The notes beneath the pieces were generated by a model that was not told the origin of the DNA, ran no database searches, and saw nothing but the letters and a program-made list of their open reading frames with translations. A stretch of 64,000 nt of DNA, taken from a bacterium (GTDB lineage Bacteria; Verrucomicrobiota; Kiritimatiellia; CAIKKV01; CAIYGI01). Shown here piece after piece: positions 4,356 to 18,917 of the stretch. Position 1 is the stretch's first letter. Each line of letters opens with the position of its first letter. The stretch covers positions 10,455-74,454 of the forward strand of contig JANYBP010000043.1 in assembly GCA_025360745.1 (NCBI GenBank), given 5' to 3'. A program made the position numbers and the translations under genes.

Positions 4356-6218
4356 ATGCGCGAACACGTAGCTCCCGAACGTAGAATTTTTAAATTGAAC
4401 CTGAAGGCCAGCGATCCGCTGGCCAACCGCCTTTTTGCGCTCGTCGGCGCCCAGATCGAGCGGATGCTGTCGCTGCATCATCTCGAAAAGATCTATTCCG
4501 ACATTCTGGATCGCGGCGGCACGAAAGGTTTCCCCGAGAAGGCTCTGGAGGTCTGTAATGTCGGCTACGACATGACCGCGACGGAATGGGAGCGCATTCC
4601 GCGCACAGGACCGGTGATCGTCGTCGCCAATCATCCCTTCGGAGGCATCGAAGGCATCGTTTTGGCCTCCCTGATGCGCTCGGTGCGTCCGGACGTTAAA
4701 TTGCTCTCGAATTATCTGCTGCGCCGCATTCCCGAGATGCGCGAACTCATGATCGCCGTGGATCCCTTCGGCAGCGAGACGGCGACGCGCACGAACATCC
4801 GCCCGATGAAGGAGGCGATCAAATGGTTGCGCGAGGGACACATGCTGGGCGTGTTCCCTTCCGGCGAGGTTTCCCATCTTGACATGCGCGCGCGCTGCAT
4901 TACCGATCCCAAGTGGTCCGATAGTATTGGACGCCTGGCGCAGATCACGGGCGCGCCCGTGCTGCCGATATTCTTCGAGGGGATGAATTCGGTTTTTTTC
5001 CAGATTATGGGTTTGGTGCATCCGCGGTTACGCACCGTCATGCTGCCGAGGGAAATACTGAACAAGGCCAACCGTACGATCAAAATCAAGGTGGGGCATG
5101 TGATCCCGCCGGAGAAGCTGGGCGAATTCTCGTCCGGCGCCGAACTGACAGCCTACCTGCGTTTGCGAACCTACCTGCTTTCGAACCGCGCCGGCGCCAA
5201 ACCATCGCGCCGCATGCTTTGGAAGCCGCGCCCGCGCCCGCGGATCGAAGCGCCGCTGAGCCCCGCCGAATCCCCAGCGGCCATGGCGGCCGAAGTCGCG
5301 GCATTGCCGCCCGAGCAGACGCTGGTGAAGAGCAACGAGTTGCGCGTGCTGATCGGCGAAACGCCGCAGATTCCCTGCATTTTGCGCGAAATCGGGCGCC
5401 TGCGCGAAAGCACCTTCCGCACGGTCGGCGAGGGCACAGGACTGTGCACCGATCTGGACGCCTATGACGCCTACTACAGTCACCTCTTCATCTGGAACGA
5501 CACGACGCATGAAGTGGTCGGCGCCTACCGTCTGGGCAGAACCGATGAAATTCTGGCCCGCATGGGCGCCAAGGGCCTCTATACGCGCTCGCTCTTCGTT
5601 TTCAAACCCAGCATGCTCAACCAGTTGAATCCCGCGCTGGAACTCGGCCGCTCGTTCGTGCGCGTCGAGTATCAGAAGAGCTACACGCCATTGCTGCTGC
5701 TCTGGAAGGGACTTGGACACTACATCGGCCTGCATCCGCGCTATGCGATCCTTTTCGGACCGGTCAGCATTTCCAACGACTACCTTTCCTTCTCGCGCTA
5801 CCTGATCGCCGCCTTTCTCAGCGTCAACAACTTCCTGCCCGACCTCTCGCGGCTGGTGCGCGCCCGCAAGCCGCTGCGGCGCAGACGTTTCCGGGGCGGA
5901 CTCGACCCGAACCTGACCAGCGCCATGGTGACCGACCTTGACGATCTGGCCGCGTTGCTGGCGGATATCGAGAGCGACGAAAAAGGCGTGCCGATCCTGC
6001 TCAAGCAGTATCTGCGCCTCGGCGGGCGCATGCTGGGCTTCAATCTCGATCCGAAATTCGGCGATTGCCTCGACGGATTGATCATGGTGGATCTGCGCAA
6101 GACCGAGCCGCGCATGCTGGCGCGCTATCTGGGCAAGCATGACGCCGCCGGTTTGCTGAACTACCACGGCCTGAAGTTGCCGCCCGAACTGTTGCCGGAC
6201 GGCGACCGGCCCGCCTAA
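4356..6218 (+). CDS. Bifunctional acyltransferase, OlsF-like: N-terminal PlsC-type O-acyltransferase plus C-terminal OlsB/hemolysin-like GNAT N-acyltransferase
   Basis: N-terminal half: VIVVANHPFGGIEGIVL ... GVFPSGEVSH (PlsC-like). C-terminal half: HLFIWNDTTHEVVGAYRL ... LELGRSFVRVEYQ (OlsB-family signature). ORF opens at 4209 but overlaps the opposite-strand gene, so ATG 4356 is preferred. Confidence 0.65.
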   Translation: MREHVAPERRIFKLNLKASDPLANRLFALVGAQIERMLSLHHLEKIYSDILDRGGTKGFPEKALEVCNVGYDMTATEWERIPRTGPVIVVANHPFGGIEGIVLASLMRSVRPDVKLLSNYLLRRIPEMRELMIAVDPFGSETATRTNIRPMKEAIKWLREGHMLGVFPSGEVSHLDMRARCITDPKWSDSIGRLAQITGAPVLPIFFEGMNSVFFQIMGLVHPRLRTVMLPREILNKANRTIKIKVGHVIPPEKLGEFSSGAELTAYLRLRTYLLSNRAGAKPSRRMLWKPRPRPRIEAPLSPAESPAAMAAEVAALPPEQTLVKSNELRVLIGETPQIPCILREIGRLRESTFRTVGEGTGLCTDLDAYDAYYSHLFIWNDTTHEVVGAYRLGRTDEILARMGAKGLYTRSLFVFKPSMLNQLNPALELGRSFVRVEYQKSYTPLLLLWKGLGHYIGLHPRYAILFGPVSISNDYLSFSRYLIAAFLSVNNFLPDLSRLVRARKPLRRRRFRGGLDPNLTSAMVTDLDDLAALLADIESDEKGVPILLKQYLRLGGRMLGFNLDPKFGDCLDGLIMVDLRKTEPRMLARYLGKHDAAGLLNYHGLKLPPELLPDGDRPA

Positions 6219-6257
6219 ATGCCGGGAAGCGGAGATTTGGACCGTTAGGAGTAATCC

Positions 6258-7661
6258 ATGAGCATCAGCCTGCGTTTTCTCGGCGCCGCCCAAACCGTCA
6301 CCGGCTCGCGCTATTTGCTCGACACCGGCGCACGCCGCATTCTGGTGGACTGCGGCCTGTATCAGGAACGCGATTTTATGGCGCGGAACTGGGAGCCCTT
6401 CCCCGTGCCGCCCGCGACGATCACAGATGTAATTTTGACCCACGCCCACCTCGATCACTGCGGCTGGCTGCCGGCGCTCGCGCGCCAGGGCTTTCGCGGC
6501 CGCGTGCGCGCCACGGCCGCCACGGCCGATTTGGCCCGCATTTCGCTGCTCGACTCCGCCCGGCTGCAGGAAGAAGACATCGCCTTCAAGCAGGCCCGCC
6601 ATGAGCGCGAAGGACGCATGGGCGCCTACCCTTACACGCCGATGTACACGGTCGCCGATGTCGAGGCCTGCTGCGCCCAGTTCACAGCGGTCGCGAATTT
6701 TGGACCGCTGGACCTAGGCGACGGCGTGGAACTGCGTTTTCGCGAAGCCGGCCACATTCTCGGGGCGGTCTCGGTTGTCCTGCGCGTGGCCAATGGCGGC
6801 GATCCGCGCACGATAGTTTTTTCCGGCGACCTGGGACGCTGGGACAAACCGCTGTTGAAGGACCCGGATCTTTGCCAGGAGGCGGATTATGTGGTTATTG
6901 AGTCCACCTACGGCGACCGCATCCACGAATCTTCGACGGGCATTCAGGAGCGGCTGGCGAATGTTATCTCCGATACGCTGCAGCGCGGCGGAAATCTGCT
7001 GATTCCGACCTTCGCCATCGAGCGGGCGCAGGAAGTGCTTTTTTATTTGAGTCGCCTGCTGCGCGCCAATCGCGTTCCGCACCTGGTAACCTTTCTTGAC
7101 AGTCCGATGGCCATCCAGGTCACAGAACTTTTCGCCAAGTACGGCGCTTCGCTCGATGCCGAGACGAAGCAAATGCTGGCCGAAGGCCATTCGCCGTTCG
7201 AGTTCGCCGGGTTGACGATGGCGCGCACGGTGCCGCAGTCCAAGGCCATCAATCATGTGCACGGCACGGCGGTGATCATGGCCGGCGCCGGAATGTGTAC
7301 CGGCGGACGCATCAAGCACCATCTGGTCAATCACCTCGGCCGGCGCGACAGCACGATCCTATTCGTGGGTTACCAGGCGCAAGGCACGCTCGGCCGTCAG
7401 ATCGCGGAGGGCGACAAGGAAGTCCGCCTCTATGGCCAGACTTACAAAGTGCGCGCCCATGTCGAGCGGATCGAGGGCTTTTCCGGCCACGCCGACCGCG
7501 ACGAACTGCTGCGCTGGCTGGGCGGCGTGAGCAAGCCGCCGCGCCAGGTCTTTGTCACACACGGCGAACCCGCCGCCGCCACGGCATTTTCCGCGGCGAT
7601 CGGCGCCGCGCGCGGCTGGCCTGTTTCGGTCCCCGCCTATGGCGACACCGCAACTCTTTAA
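6258..7661 (+). CDS. MBL-fold metallo-hydrolase, beta-CASP RNA-metabolising family
   Basis: HAHLDHCG metallo-beta-lactamase motif plus beta-CASP/RMMBL C-terminal region (FSGHADRDELLRW). Confidence 0.8.
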   Translation: MSISLRFLGAAQTVTGSRYLLDTGARRILVDCGLYQERDFMARNWEPFPVPPATITDVILTHAHLDHCGWLPALARQGFRGRVRATAATADLARISLLDSARLQEEDIAFKQARHEREGRMGAYPYTPMYTVADVEACCAQFTAVANFGPLDLGDGVELRFREAGHILGAVSVVLRVANGGDPRTIVFSGDLGRWDKPLLKDPDLCQEADYVVIESTYGDRIHESSTGIQERLANVISDTLQRGGNLLIPTFAIERAQEVLFYLSRLLRANRVPHLVTFLDSPMAIQVTELFAKYGASLDAETKQMLAEGHSPFEFAGLTMARTVPQSKAINHVHGTAVIMAGAGMCTGGRIKHHLVNHLGRRDSTILFVGYQAQGTLGRQIAEGDKEVRLYGQTYKVRAHVERIEGFSGHADRDELLRWLGGVSKPPRQVFVTHGEPAAATAFSAAIGAARGWPVSVPAYGDTATL

Positions 7662-8716
7662 CAATTCTGCCGCGGTCGGCGCTCCGGTCCGGAGCATAAC
7701 ACCAGATCCACCGCTCGTTCGCATTTCAAGCAGGCGCCGGAGCGAATTCCGGTCATTTCGGTCCGATATCCGCTCCGCCTCACCAGCGTGGCGCCGCAGG
7801 CGGGACAGATTGTGTCGTGGCCCCCGCCGGTTGCGACGTTGCCCACATAGACATAGGTCAATTTTGCGCGACAGCGTACCTGTGCGTCCATCAGCGTGCT
7901 GGCCGACGTGGGCGGTTCAGAGGCGCGGAAGTCGGGATGATAGGCGCTCAGGTGCAAAGGCGTCTTTGGCCCCAATGTTTCCGCCACCCAGTCCGCCAGG
8001 CGGTCGAAAAGTTCCGGACGGTCGTTTAGTCCGGGAATCACGAGGTTCGTGAGTTCCAAATGGCATCCCGCCGTTCGAGCCTGGCGACAGAAACGCAGCA
8101 CCGGTTCCAGGGTGGCGTGGCATTGTTGCCGGTAAAATGTCTCCTCCATGCTCTTGACGTCCACATTGAGCGCATCCAATAGCGGCAGCAACTCGGCGGC
8201 GGGTTCCTGCTCGACGTAACCATTCGTCACCAACACGTTCTTGAGTCCCGCCTGCCGGGCCAGCCTGGCGCAGTCGCGAACGAATTCGAAGCCCGTCAGC
8301 GGTTCATTGTAGGTGTAGGCGATCATCCGGCAACCGGATGCCTGCGCATCGGCGACGACCGCAGACGGGGTTGATCTTGACGATATGCCGGGGGGAAACT
8401 GCTGCGAAATCTCCCAGTTCTGGCAAAATGCACAGGCAAAGTTGCAGCCCCAACCGCCGATACTGAAAACCGTTTCACCGGGCAGAAAGTGATAAAGCGG
8501 CTTCTTTTCAACGGGATCCACATGCACCGCCGAAAGCGCCCCGTATCCCAACGCGCGCAAGCGCCCCCCGCGCACACCGCGCACATGGCAGCGTCCCGAC
8601 CGGCCCTCGCCGATAACGCAGTGGTGCGGACATAGACGGCACTCGACTCGTCCGTCCGCCAGCGCCAGCGCATACTCCGCCTCCGGTTCCATAACTTGCG
8701 AGGTTTCAGAATTCAT
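7658..8716 (-). CDS. AmmeMemoRadiSam system radical SAM enzyme (AmrS-like)
   Basis: CPHHC...GRC Zn/Fe-S N-terminus. Radical-SAM CNFACAFCQNWEIS (CxxxCxxC-type) motif. Length and architecture typical of AmrS. Confidence 0.8.
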   Translation of the reverse strand: MNSETSQVMEPEAEYALALADGRVECRLCPHHCVIGEGRSGRCHVRGVRGGRLRALGYGALSAVHVDPVEKKPLYHFLPGETVFSIGGWGCNFACAFCQNWEISQQFPPGISSRSTPSAVVADAQASGCRMIAYTYNEPLTGFEFVRDCARLARQAGLKNVLVTNGYVEQEPAAELLPLLDALNVDVKSMEETFYRQQCHATLEPVLRFCRQARTAGCHLELTNLVIPGLNDRPELFDRLADWVAETLGPKTPLHLSAYHPDFRASEPPTSASTLMDAQVRCRAKLTYVYVGNVATGGGHDTICPACGATLVRRSGYRTEMTGIRSGACLKCERAVDLVLCSGPERRPRQNC

Positions 8717-8850
8717 GCCCCACCCTTCGCCTCCACAAATACGCAGATAGGTTGTCAGTCGGTATTCTGTTACACTCTAGGCGAAAAACATGCGCGCGAC
8801 CACACATAACTGACAGTCTTCAGCCTAAGCAGCCTTTTGGAGCATCGTTC

Positions 8851-9555
8851 ATGGCCGATATTCCCGTGCAATGTCCCGCCTGCGGCAATCGGTTCCAAGT
8901 CTCGGAATACGCGGATCGGGATAAATTGCTGTGCGCCAAATGCGGCGCGGCCATTCCGCCGCCGGAACAGCAGGCGGTGACAGCGGAATATCCCGCACCC
9001 AAACTGCGACTTGCCACAGCCCAACCCATCATAACGCCCGTCGTGCCGCCGCCAAGCGCGGAACTGAGCGTTACCCAGGCATGGATGCGCCGCCGGCAGC
9101 AACACGCCAAAAGCAAATCCTCGCGCCGCCATCTATCGCTCCTGACCCGGCTCAATTCCTCCACCTGGTCTAATTGGGCAATTTTCATCCTGCTCGCGGG
9201 GGTCGGCATCTACTTGCGTTTCTTTGCGCCGATGTCCGCCGCATTGCATGGCGAGTTGCGTTACTGGGGCGCCATGGCGCTGCTGGCCTGTCACATCACG
9301 ATCGTCATTTCGGCGTTTTCGGACGAGACATTTCAAGGCATACTGTGTCTGCTGGTTCCAGTCTATTCGCTGTATTATCTTTACAGTTTATCCGACGAAC
9401 ATTTTTTGCGCGCCATCATGGCGGCCCTGGCCCTGGCCTTCGGTATGGATGCCTGGCAGTATTTGAACGCCATTACCAACGATGTCTTCGACGGCGTCAA
9501 TCGCTGGATGCAGGCCGGCGGCGATACGAGCAATCAACGCATTTACGGGCGCTGA
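8851..9555 (+). CDS. Zinc-ribbon domain membrane protein (hypothetical)
   Basis: CPACGNRF...CAKCGA zinc ribbon followed by Pro-rich linker and 3-4 TM helices. ATG 8851 is preceded by GGAG. Confidence 0.6.
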   Translation: MADIPVQCPACGNRFQVSEYADRDKLLCAKCGAAIPPPEQQAVTAEYPAPKLRLATAQPIITPVVPPPSAELSVTQAWMRRRQQHAKSKSSRRHLSLLTRLNSSTWSNWAIFILLAGVGIYLRFFAPMSAALHGELRYWGAMALLACHITIVISAFSDETFQGILCLLVPVYSLYYLYSLSDEHFLRAIMAALALAFGMDAWQYLNAITNDVFDGVNRWMQAGGDTSNQRIYGR

Positions 9556-9581
9556 GCTGGAGGGTGGAAGGTGGGCCAGTT

Positions 9582-10763
9582 TCAGACTTTAACCATCACC
9601 TTGGCGCTGTTTCGCAATCCAGCCGCGCATCCGATCAAGAGCCCATAAACCAGCACCAGTTTGGCGTCGCCAAAATTATATTCCACCAACCCGTTCAGCA
9701 GCAGCGCGCAAAATCCCAGCAGCAGCGCCAGCGAGAGCATGCCTTCCGCGCCCGCGGAACGGCGGGTGCGTCGAAACAGACCGACTGCGTCCAGCAGCGC
9801 CGCGCCCATCCAGGCCAGGTAAAGCGCGAGGCCGATCCAGCCGGTGGAAACCACCATTTCAACCGGGTTGGAGTGCAGATGGTCGCGGTCCGGCTCGATT
9901 TCCGGGACGATGCGGCGGTAGTCATCGTTGGTGAGCGAACGGTACCCCGCCCCACACCACGGGTGTTCGCGCACCAGCGCCGGGGCCAGCTTCGTCCACA
10001 TCGTCATGCGTCCGCCCCGCCCCGCATCGAACTCGTCCTCCAAAGCCTGCAGGCGGTGCTGCATCGGCGGCAGCGACAGCAAAACCACAAGCGCCGCCGC
10101 CAGGCCAAGCCAGGCTTTCCAGCCACCGCGCACGGCCAGCAGAACCGCCAGCATGGCCGCGGTTGCAAACCAGGCGCCGCGCTTGAAACTCAGCGCCAGT
10201 GCCAGCCCCGTCAGCGCCGCCACCAGCCACCACCAGGCGGGGCGGCCGCCCAGCCGGCGCACCGCCATGATGAATCCCAGCGCCAGAATCAACCCCACCA
10301 TGCAGCGCTGACTGTCGGACATCGAGCCCGTGTTCACCAGAGCCGTCATGAAGTCCGGCTGTAACCCGGCCTGCCAGGTTTTCCAAGCATGCCAGGGCGC
10401 CAGCACCAGCGTTCGCAGCGCCACCAGCGACGCGCCGATCGCATAGGCGCCCAGCACGGTTGCCAGCCGATCTGAAGTCGTCACCAGCCAGCCGCCGGCC
10501 AGTGCGCCCGCAAACCAGAAAAGTTTTGTCAAACACGGCACGCCGCGGTACGGATCGACGCCATAAACCGTCACGCCAACGGCCCAGGCCAAAAACACAA
10601 GATAGAGCCAGCCGCTCGGTGCGAGTGTCACGGATGCACGCCTCCTCACGCGATCGACAACGAACATCAGCAAAGTCACCGCCAGCATAACCCGTCCAAA
10701 AGGCAGCGAGAAACCGGCGAAAAACGCCGAGGCCGCAAAACAGATGAAGAGCGTTTGTTCCAT
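9582..10763 (-). CDS. O-antigen ligase family protein (Wzy_C / WaaL-like polymerase/ligase)
   Basis: About 10 TM helices with a large periplasmic loop. Typical O-antigen ligase topology and composition. Confidence 0.75.
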   Translation of the reverse strand: MEQTLFICFAASAFFAGFSLPFGRVMLAVTLLMFVVDRVRRRASVTLAPSGWLYLVFLAWAVGVTVYGVDPYRGVPCLTKLFWFAGALAGGWLVTTSDRLATVLGAYAIGASLVALRTLVLAPWHAWKTWQAGLQPDFMTALVNTGSMSDSQRCMVGLILALGFIMAVRRLGGRPAWWWLVAALTGLALALSFKRGAWFATAAMLAVLLAVRGGWKAWLGLAAALVVLLSLPPMQHRLQALEDEFDAGRGGRMTMWTKLAPALVREHPWCGAGYRSLTNDDYRRIVPEIEPDRDHLHSNPVEMVVSTGWIGLALYLAWMGAALLDAVGLFRRTRRSAGAEGMLSLALLLGFCALLLNGLVEYNFGDAKLVLVYGLLIGCAAGLRNSAKVMVKV

Positions 10764-10786
10764 GGTTTGCCTTTAAATCGACGACC

Positions 10787-11068
10787 TCATCGTCTTACCG
10801 GCGTCTTGTAGGTAATGCGACCGTCTCGAACTGTCAAAATAACAGCTATGATTGGACCTTCTGGGTCTGTGCGAAACGCATGATTGTGCGTAATCGTCCC
10901 GTCTTCATTCGTATGAACATAAAAATCAATTCCCAGCAGAGGAGCCACTTGGACGTATTCGCTTCCCAAAACTATTCTGTCATAAACCACCTGTTCTGGA
11001 TTATTTTTCTGACCACCGCATCCGCTCGCCGTCCAGAGCAGAAGAAGGAAAATGCACAAGCGCCGCAT
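10787..11068 (-). CDS. Small lipoprotein (hypothetical)
   Basis: Signal peptide with lipobox LWTASGC. 93 aa. In the low-GC islet. Confidence 0.5.
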   Translation of the reverse strand: MRRLCIFLLLLWTASGCGGQKNNPEQVVYDRIVLGSEYVQVAPLLGIDFYVHTNEDGTITHNHAFRTDPEGPIIAVILTVRDGRITYKTPVRR

Positions 11069-11108
11069 TACGCACCTCCCACCATGGCAAATAAAACTTT
11101 TTAATTCT

Positions 11109-11537
11109 CTACTCTCTGCCGATCTTTATCGGCGCTTTCTGAGCGACACTCATTCTACCCACAAAATGCAAACAGGCTGAAAGCCCTCCGATCATCAAAG
11201 CATTTGCATACGTTGTCCAGCGCACAGTTAAGGCTGTGCTGGTATAATTATAGACCATAGCGCAAACCACACCTACAGTCAGGATAAGACCCACGGCAAG
11301 TTTACCTACAGTGTTTTCATTCACAATTGGGTTCCCTAATCCCCGTTCACGTTCAATACGATGCCGCACCAGCATCGCAATCCCGTGAATGAGCAAAACG
11401 ATTGCAGCACCACACACCACATCGATCCACATTGAACGCCTCAATGTCTCCAGCATATAGAGTGACACCCCCCCAAGAACGACTACCATTCGCCGACGAT
11501 TCGTTCTTTTTTTGCCATCACAAGTCATATTTGCCAC
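11109..11537 (-). CDS. Small multi-pass membrane protein (candidate immunity protein)
   Basis: 3-4 predicted TM segments. No recognisable domain. Downstream of the toxin-like gene on the same strand. Confidence 0.45.
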   Translation of the reverse strand: MANMTCDGKKRTNRRRMVVVLGGVSLYMLETLRRSMWIDVVCGAAIVLLIHGIAMLVRHRIERERGLGNPIVNENTVGKLAVGLILTVGVVCAMVYNYTSTALTVRWTTYANALMIGGLSACLHFVGRMSVAQKAPIKIGRE

Positions 11538-11594
11538 TCTATTTTCCTATCAGGTTATAACGAAACACCAAAAACTTTGTTCCCACCCAAACAC

Positions 11595-11897
11595 CTACTC
11601 GCAAAACATCGAGCCCGCAGTCAGCACACCCTTGACTTTTTCTCGGAGTTTTCTCAACAACGCCAAGAATAAACCTGCCATCGCCCCGATGACTGCATTC
11701 ACCAGAAAGCAGAATGGAAGAAGTCGCCATGCGAGATCCAGTCCTTTTCCGCTGTGCGCAAATTGGCACCCCCTTCGTGCCTGCATCCGACTATTTCGAG
11801 TGGCCACAATGCTTTCGTTCGCCGGTGAATGCACCAATGACGGCCCATGTGGTTTGCAAAACGCCAGAGACAACCCATCCGAAAAGTAGTGAGACAA
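11595..11897 (-). CDS. Small membrane protein (uncertain; may start at internal Met about 11786, or be fused by frameshift to 11791..12150)
   Basis: Hydrophobic C-terminal half (LLPFCFLVNAVIGAMAGLFLALL). Overlaps the upstream ORF by about 107 nt in another frame. Confidence 0.3.
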   Translation of the reverse strand: MSHYFSDGLSLAFCKPHGPSLVHSPANESIVATRNSRMQARRGCQFAHSGKGLDLAWRLLPFCFLVNAVIGAMAGLFLALLRKLREKVKGVLTAGSMFCE

Positions 11898-12150
11898 CTA
11901 CATCGATTGCTGAGAACAAGAAGGTAAAGCAAATGCCCCAAATACCCACCACAGCCTTCGGCGTGTTTCCCGAGAACACAAATAGTACATCTTCCGGAAA
12001 GCACTTCCACCACTCCAGCAGACTTGGAGGAGGTCCCTTCACTCGACTGCCGAAATCGACGAACATCAAAGTTATAAAAATCAATGTCGAGATTGTGAAC
12101 CACAGTGGTCTACATGCTATTATCTTGGATCTCAAAATTGACTGGACCAT
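11791..12150 (-). CDS. Small multi-pass membrane protein (candidate immunity protein)
   Basis: Three hydrophobic segments. Starts 13 nt downstream of the RHS-tail toxin-like gene stop. Confidence 0.45.
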   Translation of the reverse strand: MVQSILRSKIIACRPLWFTISTLIFITLMFVDFGSRVKGPPPSLLEWWKCFPEDVLFVFSGNTPKAVVGIWGICFTFLFSAIDVVVSLLFGWVVSGVLQTTWAVIGAFTGERKHCGHSK

Positions 12151-12162
12151 ACGAAAGACCTC

Positions 12163-12939
12163 TCAATGACATGGGCCAACGTCTTGCGCTGAACAACCCC
12201 CGGTTATGAGTTCCGAGAATTCTGCCCCGGGCCAGAATGCCCGTTCGGTATAAGCCCCTCCTTCTCCGACAACTTGAAGGAGATCTACCCACGAATTTCC
12301 GATCTCAAGCACCTTCACCTTTGTGTCCTGCCAGTTTGCAAGAACCGTTTGGCGCCCCGGACCTGTAGCGCCCTTGGCATATCCCCGAATCGAATCACCA
12401 AGATTATAACTCTTCGCGCTGCCAATTGTCGTATGAACTCCCGCGTAGCCGTCGTATCCGGTCCATTGGGACTGGAACTGCCAGGAACATGTCACAAGAA
12501 AAGTCCTGCAACACGAATGCCTTGCTTTGACCCAGATTCGTGTTTCAGTATCACACAAATAGTTCCTGTAAAAAGGCAACGTTGTGCATGTCACAAATGC
12601 AGCGGCCGAACTACTCTCGCGAGGTCCAGAAGCCCATGCTCGTTTGCTAACCCCCCGATTATTGTCGCAGTCTGACTGCCCCCAAGACTTCCATTCTAAC
12701 AACCCGAGGGGATCCAACATATCTATTGTTCGATTGCGGACAAAAACATACAACGTTGGCGGCGGCGGACTCTTCGGAACCCCTCTGCGAATACCCACGG
12801 AATCGGTTGCATGCCGTTCATCTCCCAACGGATCTCTATTGAGCCATCTTCCCTCGTCCGGATGGTAATACGCTAGGGCCTTAACAACCAAACTACTTAA
12901 AATCAAACAACTCAAAAGAAAATACCGTATGCTTTTCAT
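12163..12939 (-). CDS. Secreted mini-RHS-tail protein: signal peptide plus RHS core-end/DPxGL motif plus novel Cys/Trp-rich C-terminal (toxin-like) domain
   Basis: MKSIRYFLLSCLILSSLVVKALA signal peptide, then YYHPDEGRWLNRDPLGDE ... TLYVFVRNRTIDMLDPLGL. This matches the RHS repeat-associated core terminal consensus (YYDPxxGRWxxxDPxG ... LYxYVxNNPxxxxDPxGL). No YD repeats anywhere. About 170-aa C-terminal domain of unknown family. Confidence 0.6.
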   Translation of the reverse strand: MKSIRYFLLSCLILSSLVVKALAYYHPDEGRWLNRDPLGDERHATDSVGIRRGVPKSPPPPTLYVFVRNRTIDMLDPLGLLEWKSWGQSDCDNNRGVSKRAWASGPRESSSAAAFVTCTTLPFYRNYLCDTETRIWVKARHSCCRTFLVTCSWQFQSQWTGYDGYAGVHTTIGSAKSYNLGDSIRGYAKGATGPGRQTVLANWQDTKVKVLEIGNSWVDLLQVVGEGGAYTERAFWPGAEFSELITGGCSAQDVGPCH

Positions 12940-14530
12940 GACTGCCCCTTTTGTTTTCTGGATCCCTCCAGGAATTTGTATTCATCAGCGTCTGGTACAG
13001 CAATGCCGAGGCAACGGTGCCGTCTTTGGAATCTTTCTTCACTTGATCCCGCATAAGTTGATTAAGTCTAGCAATATCCACGCCCTCCTTCTTCCTCAAG
13101 TTGTCCGCATAAGTTTTCACCGTCGCATGTTGTTTTTCACGCCCGTGTTGCTTGAGACAGAGTGCCCGTAACTCCAAGAAGGCGGCCAGTTCCCTTTTTG
13201 GAGACAGGGACTTCATGTACATTCCCGTTTCGAGTTCCTCCTTGGATATAGGCCAGGGCCACTCCATGTATTCCTGATCCGGATAACAGTTCAACCCTCG
13301 ATTAGTTCCTTCGATATTGAAGCGATCCTTGGCATCTTCCCACCTTACAAATAGGTGGCCTTTGCATTCGACAAGTTTCAGGGGATACCCCAGCCGCCTG
13401 CCGACGGCAACATAGAAGACAGGTAAGGATGCGCACGTTCCCTGATGCGCGGCCTCTGTCAGGCCGTGAATAAAAAGATCATGAGAATTTCCAAAGAACG
13501 AAAAGTCATTGCGGATGACTTCCACCGGTCCAGCCCGCATCTTCGGATCCTTGTTGTAACATACCTTGAAATCTTCCTGGAGGACGCAAATCATCATCAG
13601 AACGCGAAAGTATGCTTCAGAATTATTGAACTCTTCAGGTGTTTTCTGAAATTTGTAGAGATGCCTGTCTGTCTCATGTTTGACCCAAGCCGCCAACTGA
13701 TCGAAATCATTCCGCGTTTTCTCGACATCGAGTTTCTCTGCACCAGGTAGTCCCTTGGCCGCAAGGAGATTGATTTCGGCAATATCGTAGTCTTTCGAGG
13801 ACGCCTTCTTTTCCAGCATCTCGCACAAATTGAGTTCAGCGGTGTCAAAACCCTCGCCAACGGGGTGCGGGCGAATGCCAATCGATTCCTGTTTTGGGCG
13901 AACATCCAAGCCCGGGCCCCGCATAAGCCTCAAATTTTGCTGGTTAATTTCTGCTGTCCGCTGGAGTGACACTTGTCTTAGGCGCTCATTCTGTTGCTGT
14001 ATCTTGTCAGAATATTCATCGTCCGCCGACCTTGCAGACTGCCCGTTCCCTGATGACGTCTGCTTTATGTGTTCTTGTTCCTGTATATTCAGTTGCCCTT
14101 TATTTACTTCCAGCGCTTGCTGTTGGTACTCTTGAAACTCCTTCGTTGTCGCGACCTGAAGTTCGATTCTACTGAGTTCACGTTTCATTTCTATCACGTA
14201 TTCTTGCAGATGCGGCGGAATTGCGTTCGTGTGCGTGGACGATAATGCTTCCAAATTTCTTCTTATTTTCATGGCTCGTAACTCGAACTCGTCCATAGCC
14301 ATCTGTTGATTCACGATGTTCTGTTCATCTTGTTCAAGACTCAGTCTTTTGGCGGTTATGGCAAGTTGCTCCGGGTCTGTGTAACCTGCAACTCTGCGAC
14401 TATTTTGTGCAAAGACTGGAAACTCTGCCAGAACAAGCGGTAGAATGGTTGCAAGTGCGGTTAGCAAGATGCTGACACGCGGGAGCAATCTCGGTTTTCG
14501 TCGCTCGCTACTCATAAAAGCCGTTTGCAA
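12893..14530 (-). CDS. Secreted coiled-coil protein with C-terminal transglutaminase-like cysteine-protease domain
   Basis: N-terminal signal/TM. About 250 aa Gln/Glu-rich coiled coil. C-terminal GTCASLPVFYVAVGRRLGYPLKLVECKGHLFVRWED...FNIEGT matches the transglutaminase-like core (GxC ... ALGIPAR ... HAWVE ... D). 3' end overlaps the next gene by 47 nt. Confidence 0.6.
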   Translation of the reverse strand: MQTAFMSSERRKPRLLPRVSILLTALATILPLVLAEFPVFAQNSRRVAGYTDPEQLAITAKRLSLEQDEQNIVNQQMAMDEFELRAMKIRRNLEALSSTHTNAIPPHLQEYVIEMKRELSRIELQVATTKEFQEYQQQALEVNKGQLNIQEQEHIKQTSSGNGQSARSADDEYSDKIQQQNERLRQVSLQRTAEINQQNLRLMRGPGLDVRPKQESIGIRPHPVGEGFDTAELNLCEMLEKKASSKDYDIAEINLLAAKGLPGAEKLDVEKTRNDFDQLAAWVKHETDRHLYKFQKTPEEFNNSEAYFRVLMMICVLQEDFKVCYNKDPKMRAGPVEVIRNDFSFFGNSHDLFIHGLTEAAHQGTCASLPVFYVAVGRRLGYPLKLVECKGHLFVRWEDAKDRFNIEGTNRGLNCYPDQEYMEWPWPISKEELETGMYMKSLSPKRELAAFLELRALCLKQHGREKQHATVKTYADNLRKKEGVDIARLNQLMRDQVKKDSKDGTVASALLYQTLMNTNSWRDPENKRGSHEKHTVFSFELFDFK

Positions 14531-14718
14531 AATGCGCTGGCGAACAGGTTAAAATGATCTAACTGACAAGGTGATGTGCGCTTCGAGGGCAATATACCAA
14601 GCGAAATCTACGTTAGAAGCAATAGATTGCAAGTTCTTGAACCCGTTTCTAGATGAATTCCGGTTCGGCATGCAGCCGAAATTGGCCCGTCCCCGTCGCC
14701 TTCTTCGGGTTGCCAACA

Positions 14719-15387
14719 TCAAGGGGCGGCATGTTTCCCAACGTCCAATGGAATTACAATGCGCTCTCCAATGACAAGCGCACGCTCAGCGTCAATCCTA
14801 TTGGCCTTCATGATCCCCGCACTGGTGACTCCGAAGGCTTCTGCGACTGTCCGAATGGTATCCCCCCTCTTTGCTATATAAGACATCATGACTTGCTTCA
14901 CATTTTCTGTTATTGATGTTTTGCCATAACCGCCATCGCCATTTTTTACTGGAGCGCGCCCATCGAAGTTATCGCTCAGATCGACAACCCTGGCGCTTTG
15001 TCCCTTGCCAGTTCCCAAAATATCCGTGAGCTGTCCTAGTCGACTGTCGATATCTGCTATAGCCACCTCGTTGTTGAATCCCATTTGCCGCCAACTGATG
15101 CGAATCCGCGTGCCACTTACAAGAGTTGCCTCCACATATTTTTGCGACGTCACGTCAATCTGAACCAAGCGCATGCCTCTATTCCAAGCGCGTTCATATA
15201 ACTGCAACGCCACGCAGAACGATGTCGCGCCGACTATTCTTACCCGGTCTTCTTGCGTGCTGTTCACTGCTTGAGTCGGACTGACGCGCAGACTGTCATC
15301 GTCAGTTCTCTCCACAACCCAAACCGGATCAGCTCCACAACTTACTGCACAAAGCATTACCAATAGGCACGCATGCATATGATTCAT
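14719..15387 (-). CDS. Lipoprotein with C-terminal LysM peptidoglycan-binding domain
   Basis: Lipobox AVSCG. C-terminal YIAKRGDTIRTVAEAFGVTSAGIMKANRI...GERIVIP is a LysM motif. Confidence 0.7.
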   Translation of the reverse strand: MNHMHACLLVMLCAVSCGADPVWVVERTDDDSLRVSPTQAVNSTQEDRVRIVGATSFCVALQLYERAWNRGMRLVQIDVTSQKYVEATLVSGTRIRISWRQMGFNNEVAIADIDSRLGQLTDILGTGKGQSARVVDLSDNFDGRAPVKNGDGGYGKTSITENVKQVMMSYIAKRGDTIRTVAEAFGVTSAGIMKANRIDAERALVIGERIVIPLDVGKHAAP

Positions 15388-15480
15388 ATACGTCTCCAGA
15401 AAAAGATGGATGCGGAAAGCGACCCATACATCGCTCGTTAATTTCCATGGTTATTCGCCTGTAACTGGTGTTTCAACATA

Positions 15481-16503
15481 TTACAACGCCCAGGCGATCA
15501 GTCGCCAGTATCCGGCCAGCAGGGCGCCGGCTACGCCCGCCAGGCGCGCGGACAGGCCGCCGCGCACGCCGGGGGGCGGATCAGGGCGGCCGCCGCACAG
15601 CAGTTCCCTGTCCGAAACGAGTTTGCGCGGCACGAAGGCGCGCCGCTTGCGCAGCGCCCCGGAAAGCCCGCACAGCGCATGCCAGGCGCCGCGCGCAAAT
15701 TCCCCGCCCTGCCCCTTGAACAGGAAGAATACGCCGGCGCAGGCCTGATAAAAGATCAGCGCGGGCAGCGCCAGCCAGAGGGTTTTGGAATCGTAATGCC
15801 GCACCACGAACCACCAGCGGTTGCGGGTCTGCAGCGCGATCCAGCGCGTCCCGCGCGGACGGGCCATATGATACGCCAGCGCCGCGGGCGCCGCGTAACA
15901 GGGATGACCCAGGGCCGCCATACGGAATGCCAGGTCCCCATCTTCCCATCCGAAAAACAGATCCTCGTCAAAAGCATCGGCGGCCAGGGCCGCCGACCGG
16001 TTGTAAAGCGCCGCGCCCGCGGAAACCGTGCCGACCCGCGCGGGCTCATCGCCGCGGGGCCGGTAGACCACCACCTCGGCGGCGTAGTGCAGAAAGGCCC
16101 CGCAGTACTGCATTGTTTGCGGTTCGGCATGCAGCCGGATCTGCCCCGTCACCGCACCCGCGCCGGGTTGTGCCGCGAAAACCGCCGCCAGCCGTTGAAC
16201 GTAATCCGGGGCCAGCACGAGGTCGTTGTCCATGATCAGCACGAGTTCCGTTTCCGCCGCGCGCAGCGCCGCGTTGCGCGCCGGATTCGGACCGCGGTTG
16301 TCCGGCATTTCGATCACCTGGACCCGTCCGGCATAACGCGCGCGCAGCAGTGACAGGGAATCGTCCGAGGAGTGGTTGTCCACCGCCAGAATCGAATGCA
16401 AAACGATGCCAGTCTGGGCCAGCACGGAATCGAGGGTTGGCCCGAGCACGGCTGCGCCGTTGTAGTTGATCACCGCGACGGTGATGCCGGCGGCGGCGGT
16501 CAT
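15481..16503 (-). CDS. Glycosyltransferase family 2
   Basis: VAVINYNGAAVL...DNHSSDDS...DNDLVL GT-A fold motifs (DxD). Start ATG overlaps the stop of the upstream deacetylase gene (ATGA 16500-16503). Confidence 0.85.
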   Translation of the reverse strand: MTAAAGITVAVINYNGAAVLGPTLDSVLAQTGIVLHSILAVDNHSSDDSLSLLRARYAGRVQVIEMPDNRGPNPARNAALRAAETELVLIMDNDLVLAPDYVQRLAAVFAAQPGAGAVTGQIRLHAEPQTMQYCGAFLHYAAEVVVYRPRGDEPARVGTVSAGAALYNRSAALAADAFDEDLFFGWEDGDLAFRMAALGHPCYAAPAALAYHMARPRGTRWIALQTRNRWWFVVRHYDSKTLWLALPALIFYQACAGVFFLFKGQGGEFARGAWHALCGLSGALRKRRAFVPRKLVSDRELLCGGRPDPPPGVRGGLSARLAGVAGALLAGYWRLIAWAL

Positions 16504-17843
16504 GACCGGCGGGCTCCGGCCGCGGACGGCGCGGGAAGGTGCAGGTTGGAAGGTGGAGGTTGGAGGGTGGAAGGTGGAGGGTGGAGGGTGGAAGGTGGAG
16601 GGTGGAGGGTGGAAGACGAATCGGTTCCAGCAGTACTCGGGGACGGCGCGGCGATGCGCACGGCATAGGGGAGCAGAACGGCGCGACGATGCACGGAGAG
16701 GGAACTGCTCACCGCCAGGCGGCGGGCGGCGCCCGCGCCTTCACGCCAGGTCGCGCCCACCGACAATTCGCATGCGCCCGGCGTCGCGCTGTCCGGAACG
16801 ACCAGCGGCACTTCCATAACCTGCGCCCACATGTCCGCCCCCTCCGAAAGCACATTATCCGCCTGCGCCAGCATGCGGCCACGCTGGCGCAGGTGGATGA
16901 ATCCGACCAGAGCGGAGGACTCCGCCTCCGCGGGCACGGACCAGTAACACCGCAGCAGCAGGCGTTCGCCTGGCGCGACGGGACCCTCCGGCGCGCCGAT
17001 TCCCAGCAGCGTGACGCCGCGATCGAAGGCCGCCAGCGGCGCTTCGGCGCGGGCGATCAATTCCGGCACGGTCACAAAGGTGTAACCGCGCGCCTTAAGC
17101 GCCGCCAGCACCTGTTCCAGAACCTTGACCACCACGGCGCGGTTGAATCCCAACTGGGTATCGTGTCCATCGTGCAGCAAAAGAATGGCGCCCGAACTCA
17201 CCCGCCGCAGCATGTAATCCGCCATGACTTCCGGCGGATCGTTATGCCAATCGTAGGCATGCACCGAGACGCCGACATTGATCTGGTTTTCGGCCCGGCA
17301 CAGTCCCGCCAAACCACGATAGCGGCGGTCGGCGGCGCTGACGCCAACGGCCTTGGCGCCCGCCTCCTCATCCGGCCCGAAAATGCCGAAGGGATCGCGA
17401 AATAACACCGGACGCACACCCGTCACGGCGGCGATGGCGTCGGCGCCGTGACGGATCTGGTCGCGCCGTTCCGCATACGAAATCCGGTCGAAGCGCGGAT
17501 GGTCGTAGGAGTGGTTGCCGATCGCATGGCCGGCCTGCAACATACGCCGCACCGTGTCCGGACTGCGTTCGACATTGGTGCCGACGAGGAAAAAAGTCGC
17601 CCGCACCGACTCGCGGTCGAGAACGTCGAGCACCTGCGAGGTGTAGGGTTCATTCGGACCATCATCGAAGGTAAGCGCCACCACGCGCCCCGCAACCGGC
17701 ACATAACTTACAAGATCGCCCGCTTGAGGCCTGAAGGGCAGCCGTTCCGGTCCGCGGCATCCCGCCAGCGCAAAGACAGCGATAAAAACGAGCACGGAGG
17801 CACAAAGGGCTTTAATAGCGCATCGCACAACTTTCATGCGCAC
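16500..17843 (-). CDS. Polysaccharide deacetylase (NodB/CE4) lipoprotein with Pro-rich repeat tail
   Basis: Lipobox LAGC. NodB motifs TFDDGP...HSYDHP. C-terminal (STLHPPP)n tail encoded by a GGTGGA-type tandem repeat. Confidence 0.85.
   Translation of the reverse strand: MRMKVVRCAIKALCASVLVFIAVFALAGCRGPERLPFRPQAGDLVSYVPVAGRVVALTFDDGPNEPYTSQVLDVLDRESVRATFFLVGTNVERSPDTVRRMLQAGHAIGNHSYDHPRFDRISYAERRDQIRHGADAIAAVTGVRPVLFRDPFGIFGPDEEAGAKAVGVSAADRRYRGLAGLCRAENQINVGVSVHAYDWHNDPPEVMADYMLRRVSSGAILLLHDGHDTQLGFNRAVVVKVLEQVLAALKARGYTFVTVPELIARAEAPLAAFDRGVTLLGIGAPEGPVAPGERLLLRCYWSVPAEAESSALVGFIHLRQRGRMLAQADNVLSEGADMWAQVMEVPLVVPDSATPGACELSVGATWREGAGAARRLAVSSSLSVHRRAVLLPYAVRIAAPSPSTAGTDSSSTLHPPPSTLHPPPSTLQPPPSNLHLPAPSAAGARRS
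16541..16620. repeat. Tandem GGTGGA/GGGTGGA-type repeat (coding, Pro-rich tail); a dispersed second copy of the motif lies at 47150-47200
   Basis: ttggaaggtggaggttggagggtggaaggtggagggtggagggtggaaggtggagggtggagggtggaag seen directly in the sequence. Confidence 0.8.
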
Positions 17844-17891
17844 GATTTTACTTCATTAATTCTCTGAAATCCAACAAAGTGTTCGCAAGCC

Positions 17892-18917
17892 ATGTTGAAC
17901 CCCGGACTAAAACGCACCCTGACCACCCTGGCGAAGCTGGCCTTTATCGCCGCCTGCTTCGCTTTCATCTTCCATCGCGTGCCATGGCGGGATGTGGCGC
18001 GCCAGGTCAGTTCTGTATCCCCAGTCTGGTTTGCCACCGCATTTCTGGCGGTGCTCTCGGAGCCCGTGGTGATGGCCCTGAAATGGCGACTATTGCTGCT
18101 CGACAAAGGCACGCCCATCAGGCTGGGACGGGTGGTGCGCATTATTTTCACAAGCAACTTCATGGCGGCGCTGATTCCCACCAGCTTCGGAGCGGACGCG
18201 GTGCGCGTATGGCTGATGAGCAAGGAACGTTTCAGCCTGGCCAATGCGGCCGGGGCGCTCGTGACCGACCGCGTGCTTGGCGTGCTGTCGCTGATGACGC
18301 TCTCGCTGGCGGCCACATTATGGATCGGTCCAACGCTGGCCGACCGCACCGTGGTGCTGACCGTGGTGGGGCTGGCCGGCGGCATGCTGCTGGCGCTCGC
18401 CTTGGCGCTCTCGCCGCTGCCGGTGCGTCTGGCGCCCTATGCGCAGCGCGCGCTGAGCCCCTGGCTGGCGCGTCGCCAGCCGCGGCTGGGGAACATCTTC
18501 GACAAAATACTGCTGAAATTGACCGAGATTCACGCCGCCATCGTCGAGTATCGCCGCCGTCCGCGCACGCTGGCCTGGGTCATGCTGCTTAATTTCGGCG
18601 TCCAGGGATTACGCATCTTGTCCTTCCACTGCCTCTTTCGGGCTGTGCATTACCCGGTGCCGTGGATGAGCGAAATCGCCTTCGTCCCGATGATCGTCTT
18701 CATGACACTGCTGCCGATTTCCTTCTTCGGCCTGGGCATCAAGGAGGGCGCATTCCTCTACTTTTTCGGCCGCGCCGGCGTGCCCGCGCCGGTCGGGCTG
18801 GGTGTTTCGCTGCTATCCTACCTGCTGGTCTTCGGCGCACAGATTCCCGGCGCACTACTGGTCCTGCCGGGATTTCTGGCCGACCGTCGCGCGCGCTCCG
18901 CGCGCGACAATCCTTGA
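17892..18917 (+). CDS. Lysylphosphatidylglycerol-synthase-TM-like / flippase-like domain membrane protein (UPF0104)
   Basis: 8 TM helices. Typical of flippase-like proteins co-occurring with GT2 genes. Divergent from the deacetylase gene with a 48-nt spacer. Confidence 0.7.
   Translation: MLNPGLKRTLTTLAKLAFIAACFAFIFHRVPWRDVARQVSSVSPVWFATAFLAVLSEPVVMALKWRLLLLDKGTPIRLGRVVRIIFTSNFMAALIPTSFGADAVRVWLMSKERFSLANAAGALVTDRVLGVLSLMTLSLAATLWIGPTLADRTVVLTVVGLAGGMLLALALALSPLPVRLAPYAQRALSPWLARRQPRLGNIFDKILLKLTEIHAAIVEYRRRPRTLAWVMLLNFGVQGLRILSFHCLFRAVHYPVPWMSEIAFVPMIVFMTLLPISFFGLGIKEGAFLYFFGRAGVPAPVGLGVSLLSYLLVFGAQIPGALLVLPGFLADRRARSARDNP

Follow-up and report, generated by a model that had tools for sequence, protein, structure and literature searches.

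Immunity proteins against pore-forming colicins and against membrane-targeting type VI secretion system (T6SS) effectors are located in the inner membrane, comprise about 110-180 amino acids (aa) with three to four transmembrane (TM) segments, and are encoded beside the envelope-acting toxin. Polymorphic toxin-immunity cassettes of the Rhs/YD-repeat type, including orphan modules, have been described by Zhang et al. 2012 (PMC3482391), and section 19 of the same work deals with Sec-dependent RHS toxins with an inactive transglutaminase domain at their N-terminus. The T6SS immunity protein BtiO of Bacteroides fragilis adopts the BLIP/BamE/DUF3862 fold (PDB 9uu1; PMC12541434). Here we analysed a stretch of 64,000 nucleotides (nt) from a bacterium of the Verrucomicrobiota (contig JANYBP010000043.1 of assembly GCA_025360745.1, positions 10,455 to 74,454), in the following referred to as the window, in which the gene of a putative polymorphic toxin of 258 aa is followed by an array of small open reading frames (ORFs) termed A, B, C and D (Table 1).

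Our joint reading of the locus is that A, possibly together with C and with B' (a shorter form of B), provides immunity to a Sec-exported envelope toxin, and that the lipoprotein gene D was left over from a toxin which has since been replaced. We assign this reading a probability of roughly 55%. ORF A is considered the best candidate for the cognate immunity gene; position, membrane location and the analogy to related loci make an immunity role of A and C plausible.

The putative toxin begins with a Sec-type signal peptide (MKSIRYFLLSCLILSSLVVKALA), directly followed by the last approximately 45 residues of the RHS-associated core (YYHPDEGRWLNRDPLG...DPLGL) and by a unique C-terminal domain of 175 aa containing 10 cysteines. 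The core tail was matched by TIGR03696 at profile positions 37-76 of 76 (E = 2.8e-4; 21.3 bits, below the cut-off of 32.5). It carries the motif YYHPDEGRW..RDP...DPLGL, in which both aspartates (D36, D76) are invariant in the family. The relatives of the toxin are proteins of 180-280 aa that match its N-terminal 22-31% only. In an alignment of 12 family sequences the first approximately 80 residues are conserved (invariant: Y24, Y25, H26, P27, G30, R31, D36, P37, Y64, D76 and G79) and nothing is conserved past DPxGL, which represents a polymorphic-toxin signature. The assignment of the 258-aa protein as a putative polymorphic toxin with a conserved N-terminus and unrelated C-termini is therefore supported. 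An earlier sequence-only reading, made by a model from the letters of the window, had interpreted the locus in this way, and both the family N-terminus and the layout of the related loci described below speak for this interpretation.

No YD/RHS repeats were detected in the toxin using Pfam, so that it does not represent a canonical Rhs protein. The window contains neither a second copy of the toxin N-terminus and core tail nor a second gene of the upstream partner described below; no search aimed at YD/RHS repeats was made in the rest of the window. Among the ORFs examined (window 8000-18000) no partner genes of the T6SS, the type V secretion system (T5SS) or Tc systems were seen. Neither Pfam nor the PDB sequences contained a match to the C-terminal domain, and an AlphaFold2 (AF2) model of it built from a single sequence was unusable (pLDDT 35). 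Since the protein combines a signal peptide with 10 cysteines in its C-terminal domain, it would fit an oxidising compartment, and the toxin probably acts in the envelope, either in the periplasm or in the membrane.

The gene preceding the toxin gene is predicted to encode a transglutaminase-like (TG-like) partner protein consisting of an N-terminal TM anchor, a coiled-coil region, as judged from its sequence, and a TG-like domain. The Pfam family Transglut_core2 matched the window protein and two of its homologues just under the cut-off. This weak match coincides with the motif GTCASLPVFYVAVGRRLGYPLKLVECKGHLFVRWED..RFNIEGT (residues ~350-410; window 13340-13480), which is nearly invariant across the homologues. 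The conserved Cys/His motif GTCASLP...KGHLFVRW is found in all homologues, and the Cys and His of the catalytic type seem to have been kept. A PDB sequence search with the TG-like protein was uninformative, and no matches to it were found among viral contigs. Homologues sharing 49-60% identity were detected in four metagenome-assembled genomes (MAGs), two of which are labelled Verrucomicrobiota. In two of the related loci (L006, 3768-5389; L010, 4485-6122) apparent frameshifts divide the TG-like gene into two ORFs that overlap; these may represent assembly errors or pseudogenes.

The 3' end of the TG-like gene overlaps the start of the toxin gene in a different frame, by 47 nt in the window and by 62 nt in four related loci, and both frames are conserved in this region (window 12893-13100; L002, L006, L007, L008, L010). 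An overlapping mini-toxin with a different C-terminus follows the TG-like gene in three of the four MAGs and in the JGI contig L006; L009 ends at the match. The last ~60 codons of the TG-like gene are part of a conserved 5' homology (recombination) arm, and orphan cassettes keep the last ~55 of them. DNA homology among the cassettes sets in ~200 nt before the toxin ATG, so that the arm extends across the boundary between the two genes. Related cassettes of TG-like and toxin genes occupy quite different genomic contexts, which suggests that they are mobile.

The gene located directly after each mini-toxin in the related loci nearly always encodes an exported or membrane protein. A co-directional small gene was found in this slot for eight of the nine toxin genes in five related loci, the exception being L002. 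The toxin of L007 is followed by genes for a 118-aa four-TM protein and a 94-aa TM protein and then by an orphan cassette with a 243-aa lipoprotein, that of L008 by a 177-aa lipoprotein and then by an orphan toxin with a 139-aa membrane-anchored protein, and that of L010 by a 171-aa lipoprotein. No Pfam family was found for the slot proteins listed. The three cassettes of L006 contain genes for a TM protein of 64 aa, a lipoprotein of 88 aa and an Imm32 protein. In L002 an 84-aa three-TM ORF (8739-8993) directly follows the mini-toxin P0003 on the opposite, convergent strand, an unusual orientation for an immunity gene.

Whenever the toxin C-terminus differs between the related loci, the slot protein differs as well. 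Such changing slot proteins are expected of immunity genes and not of a conserved export machinery. The array predicted in the window fits this recurrent architecture.

A trace of a replaced cassette is associated with the lipoprotein D. An exhaustive HMMER search (A and C were searched by a word-indexed method) retrieved three small homologous proteins, namely P0012 (E = 5.9e-9), P0015 and P0020; the long repetitive proteins that were also retrieved look like compositional matches. The genes of all three homologues are located 4-34 nt downstream of a gene ending in a '...GCKCCV...Y[LIR]PW*' domain, with the C-termini PVYLPW*, PVYIPW* and YRPW*. The 'CKCCV' gene of L012 shows an RHS-core tail (RWTARDP...). 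This putative toxin domain comprises ~95 aa and the paired BLIP-like lipoprotein ~100 aa (L011, 43-765; L012, 3-873; L013, 1-700), and neither of them belongs to a Pfam family. No matches to the D family were found among viral contigs.

Furthermore, the toxin-immunity junctions of L011 and L012 can be aligned with the 22 nt that precede D in the window. The codons TAT TTG CCA TGG (YLPW) of this scar correspond to the last four toxin codons, and the TTT preceding them is not conserved. The former stop codon, TAG in L011 and L012, reads TGG in the window and is followed by the ribosome-binding site GGAGG and the ATG of D. D as the cognate partner of the resident 258-aa toxin was rejected, as this toxin is unrelated to the 'CKCCV' profile (hhalign probability 0.5%). 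Taken together, the pairing of all three homologues with a 'CKCCV' domain, the scar in the window and the unrelated resident toxin demonstrate, at the level of sequence comparison, that D is an orphan immunity-type gene which is not cognate to the 258-aa toxin. The sequence-only reading had expected both cognate and orphan immunity genes in the array; with respect to the orphans this applies to the lipoprotein D and not to the three hydrophobic ORFs. We also considered ORF C as a decayed copy of the lost toxin and rejected it, as tblastn with the 'CKCCV' domains against the window recovered the YLPW scar alone.

A conceivable history starts from the ancestral order TG-like gene, 'CKCCV' toxin and D. 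An incoming cassette carrying a new toxin C-terminal domain together with A, B' and C would have been integrated by recombination, with the 5' crossover in the conserved arm and the 3' junction just before the old stop codon. The older 'CKCCV...YLPW' toxin would thereby have been lost, with its last four codons and the ribosome-binding site of D as the only remnants. In the present arrangement the toxin would be exported by Sec and its toxin domain would act in the periplasm or membrane, where A, possibly also C or B', would neutralise it from the inner membrane, either by binding it on the periplasmic side or through shielding of the toxin target. Such an arrangement would protect the producing cell and its kin.

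Table 1. Features of the putative toxin-immunity locus (positions within the window)
Feature	Position	Strand	Size and start	Assignment
LysM protein gene	14719..15387	-		first gene of the island
TG-like partner gene	12893..14530	-	545 aa	transglutaminase-like protein, based on ORF and homologues
Putative polymorphic toxin gene	12163..12939	-	258 aa	signal peptide, RHS-core tail and unique C-terminal domain
ORF A	11791..12150	-	119 aa, ATG	small polytopic membrane protein in the immunity slot
ORF B	11595..11897	-	100 aa, TTG	form given by the sequence-only reading, overlapping A
ORF B'	11595..11786	-	63 aa, ATG 11786	single-TM peptide; reality as a gene uncertain
ORF C	11109..11537	-	142 aa, GTG 11537	polytopic membrane protein, second candidate immunity gene
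Lost-toxin scar	11075..11096	-		DNA alignment with the junctions of L011 and L012; same-frame translation RIKKFYLPWWEV
ORF D	10787..11068	-	93 aa	lipoprotein (lipobox ASGC), orphan immunity-type gene, predicted BLIP/BamE-like fold

The coordinates and the strand which the sequence-only reading had given for A, B, C and D were found to be exact, as was the overlap of about 107 nt between A and B in different frames (exactly 107 nt, 11791..11897). The spacer between the toxin stop codon and the ATG of A on the same strand comprises 12 nt (12151..12162), one less than had been reported. The motif GAGAGG is located upstream of this ATG. ORF C has an alternative start at ATG 11432 resulting in a protein of 107 aa, preceded by GAGG at a spacing of 6 nt. 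A Shine-Dalgarno motif was not visible in the sequence upstream of the start of B', and a promoter and terminator scan revealed nothing decisive between the ORFs.

Segments were regarded as strongly TM-like when their mean Kyte-Doolittle value in a 17-residue window was at least 2.0. On this basis ORF A has two strong TM segments and a weaker one, and ORF C two strong and one or two weaker ones, three to four in all. In B' a single TM segment (residues 28-44) lies 3' of the overlap with A. The description of the hydrophobic ORFs as multi-TM proteins thus holds for A and C and fails for B, in which the only TM segment is found downstream of the overlap.

Each of A and C returned itself alone in an indexed search of 5.8 billion proteins, and no matches to either of them were found among metagenome contigs or PDB sequences. 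A, B, C and D had no match below E = 0.01 in Pfam, NCBIfam and PADLOC (B was scanned as its 100-aa form in the former two and as its 63-aa form in PADLOC), and none of the four gave a significant match to the profiles of known immunity families (Pfam Imm*, SUKH, colicin immunity and others). An all-against-all BLASTP comparison showed that they are not paralogues, and a DNA self-comparison revealed no repeats. The proposed clustering of the ORFs therefore disclosed no kinship among A, B and C and no relation to an immunity family. The lack of conservation, which the sequence-only reading had named as an argument against its own proposal, was indeed observed for A and C; it is common for immunity genes of polymorphic systems. 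Membership in a known transporter family, its second such argument, was not found in Pfam or NCBIfam, as the matches of A, B and C to transporter and channel families remained at noise level (MscS_TM: E = 0.057, 12.7 bits versus a cut-off of 28).

The ORFs might represent real membrane proteins with an accessory role, such as holin-like proteins or export helpers that assist in toxin release or maturation, or they might be cargo of the island without any relation to the toxin. This explanation draws on the fact that the function of A, B' and C is deduced, with three candidates for one toxin, and on the small TM gene of L002 that is oriented opposite to its toxin. However, immunity genes of this family occupy the slot immediately behind the variable toxin domain, as exemplified by Imm32 in L006, and the slot proteins change along with the toxin C-terminus. 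An accessory or unrelated role therefore seems unlikely, although it survives better than the further explanations considered below for the array as a whole.

The minus strand is G+T-rich in this region (GC skew -0.24 to -0.28), and five of the six frames are open around 11800..11890. Due to the depletion of stop codons in all frames by this composition, ORF length represents weak evidence here, and A, B' and C might be non-coding chance products of a strand with few stops and many hydrophobic codons. The off-frame ORF of 134 aa in the same region and the weak codon signal in A and B' would be in line with such an origin. We compared the minus strand of 11069..12162 with simulated sequences of the same composition (first-order Markov model, n = 1000). 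The observed five strong TM-like segments contrast with 0.31 +/- 0.57 in the simulations, none of which (0/1000) reached five. The segments are confined to two frames, with two in the frame of A, three in the frame shared by B and C and none in the third. The second and third longest open segments also exceeded the simulation (P = 0.0025 and 0/2000, respectively).

The codon usage points in the same direction. An enrichment of T is specific to the second codon position, where it makes up 41% of the letters in A, 38% in B' and 37% in C. Codon-position periodicity is strongest within the array in C (p = 5e-4), marginal in A (p = 0.03) and not significant in the 63-aa B'. A codon model trained on three larger genes of the island favoured the annotated frame for A, B', C and D, with an only slightly positive value for B'. 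An independent pipeline predicted ORF A as a gene of the Logan contig, and the 107-aa form of C as well as D were called in both the NCBI and the Logan records. Neither record contains a call for B, B' or the off-frame ORFs (ORFs with TTG or GTG start were queried with V or L as first residue). A chance origin of the whole array thus appears improbable. For B' alone it is plausible, if somewhat short of an even chance, and whether B' is a real gene is uncertain.

With regard to the overlap of A and B, the sequence-only reading had left the choice between an internal start of B near 11786 and a single frameshifted membrane protein of about 185 aa. We favour the interpretation that A and B are two separate reading frames and that B most simply starts at ATG 11786. 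This ATG is located 4 nt past the stop codon of A, and the part of B within the overlap appears to be non-coding: in 11794..11897 the frame of B obtains a negative score with the in-frame model, and the off-frame (+1) model returns a positive one. Within the overlap the frame of A reads as a TM helix and that of B is non-hydrophobic and not coding-like.

The alternative, a single gene of A and B with a frameshift near 11790..11800 that would represent a recent pseudogene or a programmed frameshift, derives some appeal from the hydrophobic coding signal, which switches from the frame of A to that of B exactly at the stop codon of A, with the TM segment of B just 3' of it, and from the missing Shine-Dalgarno motif and gene calls of B'. 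On the other hand, an independent Logan assembly is 100% identical over window 5660..16590, so that a one-off assembly error at the junction is unlikely; it was recovered from eight samples, which may stem from one study and are then of limited independence. Furthermore, the junction contains no homopolymer or slippery run, an ATG 4 nt past the preceding stop codon is a normal coupled arrangement, and no uninterrupted homologue of A and B was found among the indexed proteins or among the metagenome contigs searched with A. In a fused protein with a cytoplasmic N-terminus, the strongly positive loop (ERKHCGHSK...RRGCQFAHSGKG) following three TM segments would presumably violate the positive-inside rule. 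The frameshifted protein of about 185 aa is thus unsupported, and we regard it as rather remote.

Equally little speaks for A, B' and C as decayed pieces of one polytopic membrane-protein gene of ~340 aa with seven to eight TM segments, one frameshift and three stops: all TM segments lie in two frames of one strand, only a hydrophobic stretch of 14 codons (VFGWEQSFWCFVIT; 11538-11594) and three stops lie between B' and C in their common frame, which may be due to chance or be the trace of a longer ORF, but pieces of 119 and 142 aa from an established family would normally find relatives and found none, C possesses a separate start with GAGG and shows the strongest periodicity, and L007 likewise harbours two separate small TM genes in the slot.

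Several observations weigh against the joint reading of A as an immunity gene and D as a remnant. The immunity function of A, B' and C is deduced from their position, and selection on them could be measured only with homologues or variants. Three candidates are more than one toxin needs. Pfam, PDB and AF2 gave no indication of the activity or the site of action of the toxin. A and C show no sequence similarity to the slot proteins of the related loci (the 118-aa protein of L007 was compared). With regard to coding evidence, the log-likelihood ratio of A under the codon model is 0.037 per codon versus 0.09-0.16 in the neighbouring genes, the second longest open segment is the off-frame 134-aa ORF, which is longer than A and has no TM segment, the NCBI record contains no call for A, and B' was called by no pipeline. 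The limited independence of the Logan samples has to be taken into account here as well.

The locus is situated in an island (~10780 to 15480) with a GC content near 0.49 versus ~0.62 in its surroundings, flanked by a Wzy_C (O-antigen ligase-like) gene and a GT2 glycosyltransferase gene. No integrase was seen, and no RNA families were detected in the window using Rfam. An ORF in the vicinity (16500..17843, minus strand, 447 aa) ends in proline-rich heptad-like repeats (window 16500-16640; PPPSTLH PPPSTLH PPPSTLQ PPPSNLH).

If the immunity function of A or C is confirmed, sequence-unique membrane immunity proteins would join the repertoire of polymorphic toxin systems, and this would point to an envelope-acting toxin domain without known relatives. 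The 'CKCCV' partner and D would represent a toxin-immunity pair absent from Pfam, and the scar shows how the replacement of a cassette leaves orphan immunity genes behind. The family context, in which a TG-like partner is combined with a Sec-exported toxin that has an RHS tail and no shell, may outweigh the array itself. This prompts the question how a cleavage tail of the RHS type can work without its cocoon, in a phylum with little-studied interbacterial antagonism.

It is conceivable, although we consider it doubtful, that the locus belongs to an undescribed, shell-less and Sec-dependent branch of polymorphic toxins in the Verrucomicrobiota. In such a branch the membrane-anchored TG-like protein may process or display a mini-toxin that has kept the RHS self-cleavage tail only, immunity may be provided by lineage-unique polytopic membrane proteins such as A and C instead of known immunity families, and the 'CKCCV' domain together with its BLIP-like lipoprotein may constitute a further new toxin-immunity pair. 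The literature searched contained no paper linking the TG-like and RHS-tail toxin features in Verrucomicrobiota. As a whole, the locus is an ordinary kind of bacterial warfare locus, the members of which are unique in sequence and some details of which are unusual.

Compared with the described systems, the fold predicted for D resembles that of BtiO and the BLIP and BamE lipoproteins (DUF3862, PF12978), whereas the sequence identity is 7-16%, no Pfam family is reached at threshold and the partner toxin of the 'CKCCV...PW' type has no Pfam match. A and C resemble the membrane immunity proteins of colicins and T6SS effectors as small inner-membrane proteins encoded next to a toxin, and differ from the colicin type in matching no Pfam or NCBIfam family, the colicin-immunity families included.

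As in the Sec-dependent RHS toxins, the TG-like domain comes after a TM or signal anchor and precedes RHS-derived sequence and a variable toxin. In contrast to them, the TG-like module is encoded here by a separate, overlapping gene and appears to have kept its Cys/His motif, and the RHS repeat array is absent. The resemblance to the Rhs cassettes comprises a pre-toxin region ending in the DPxGL of the RHS core, a hypervariable C-terminal toxin domain with a small immunity gene directly 3' of it, orphan cassettes that keep the 5' homology arm, and displaced immunity genes that remain in place, as in the case of D. Unlike these cassettes, the toxin of the window measures 258 aa in all and has no YD/RHS repeats and hence no shell, each cassette brings its own Sec signal peptide, and the homology arm is composed of the 3' end of the TG-like gene and the 5' end of the toxin gene.

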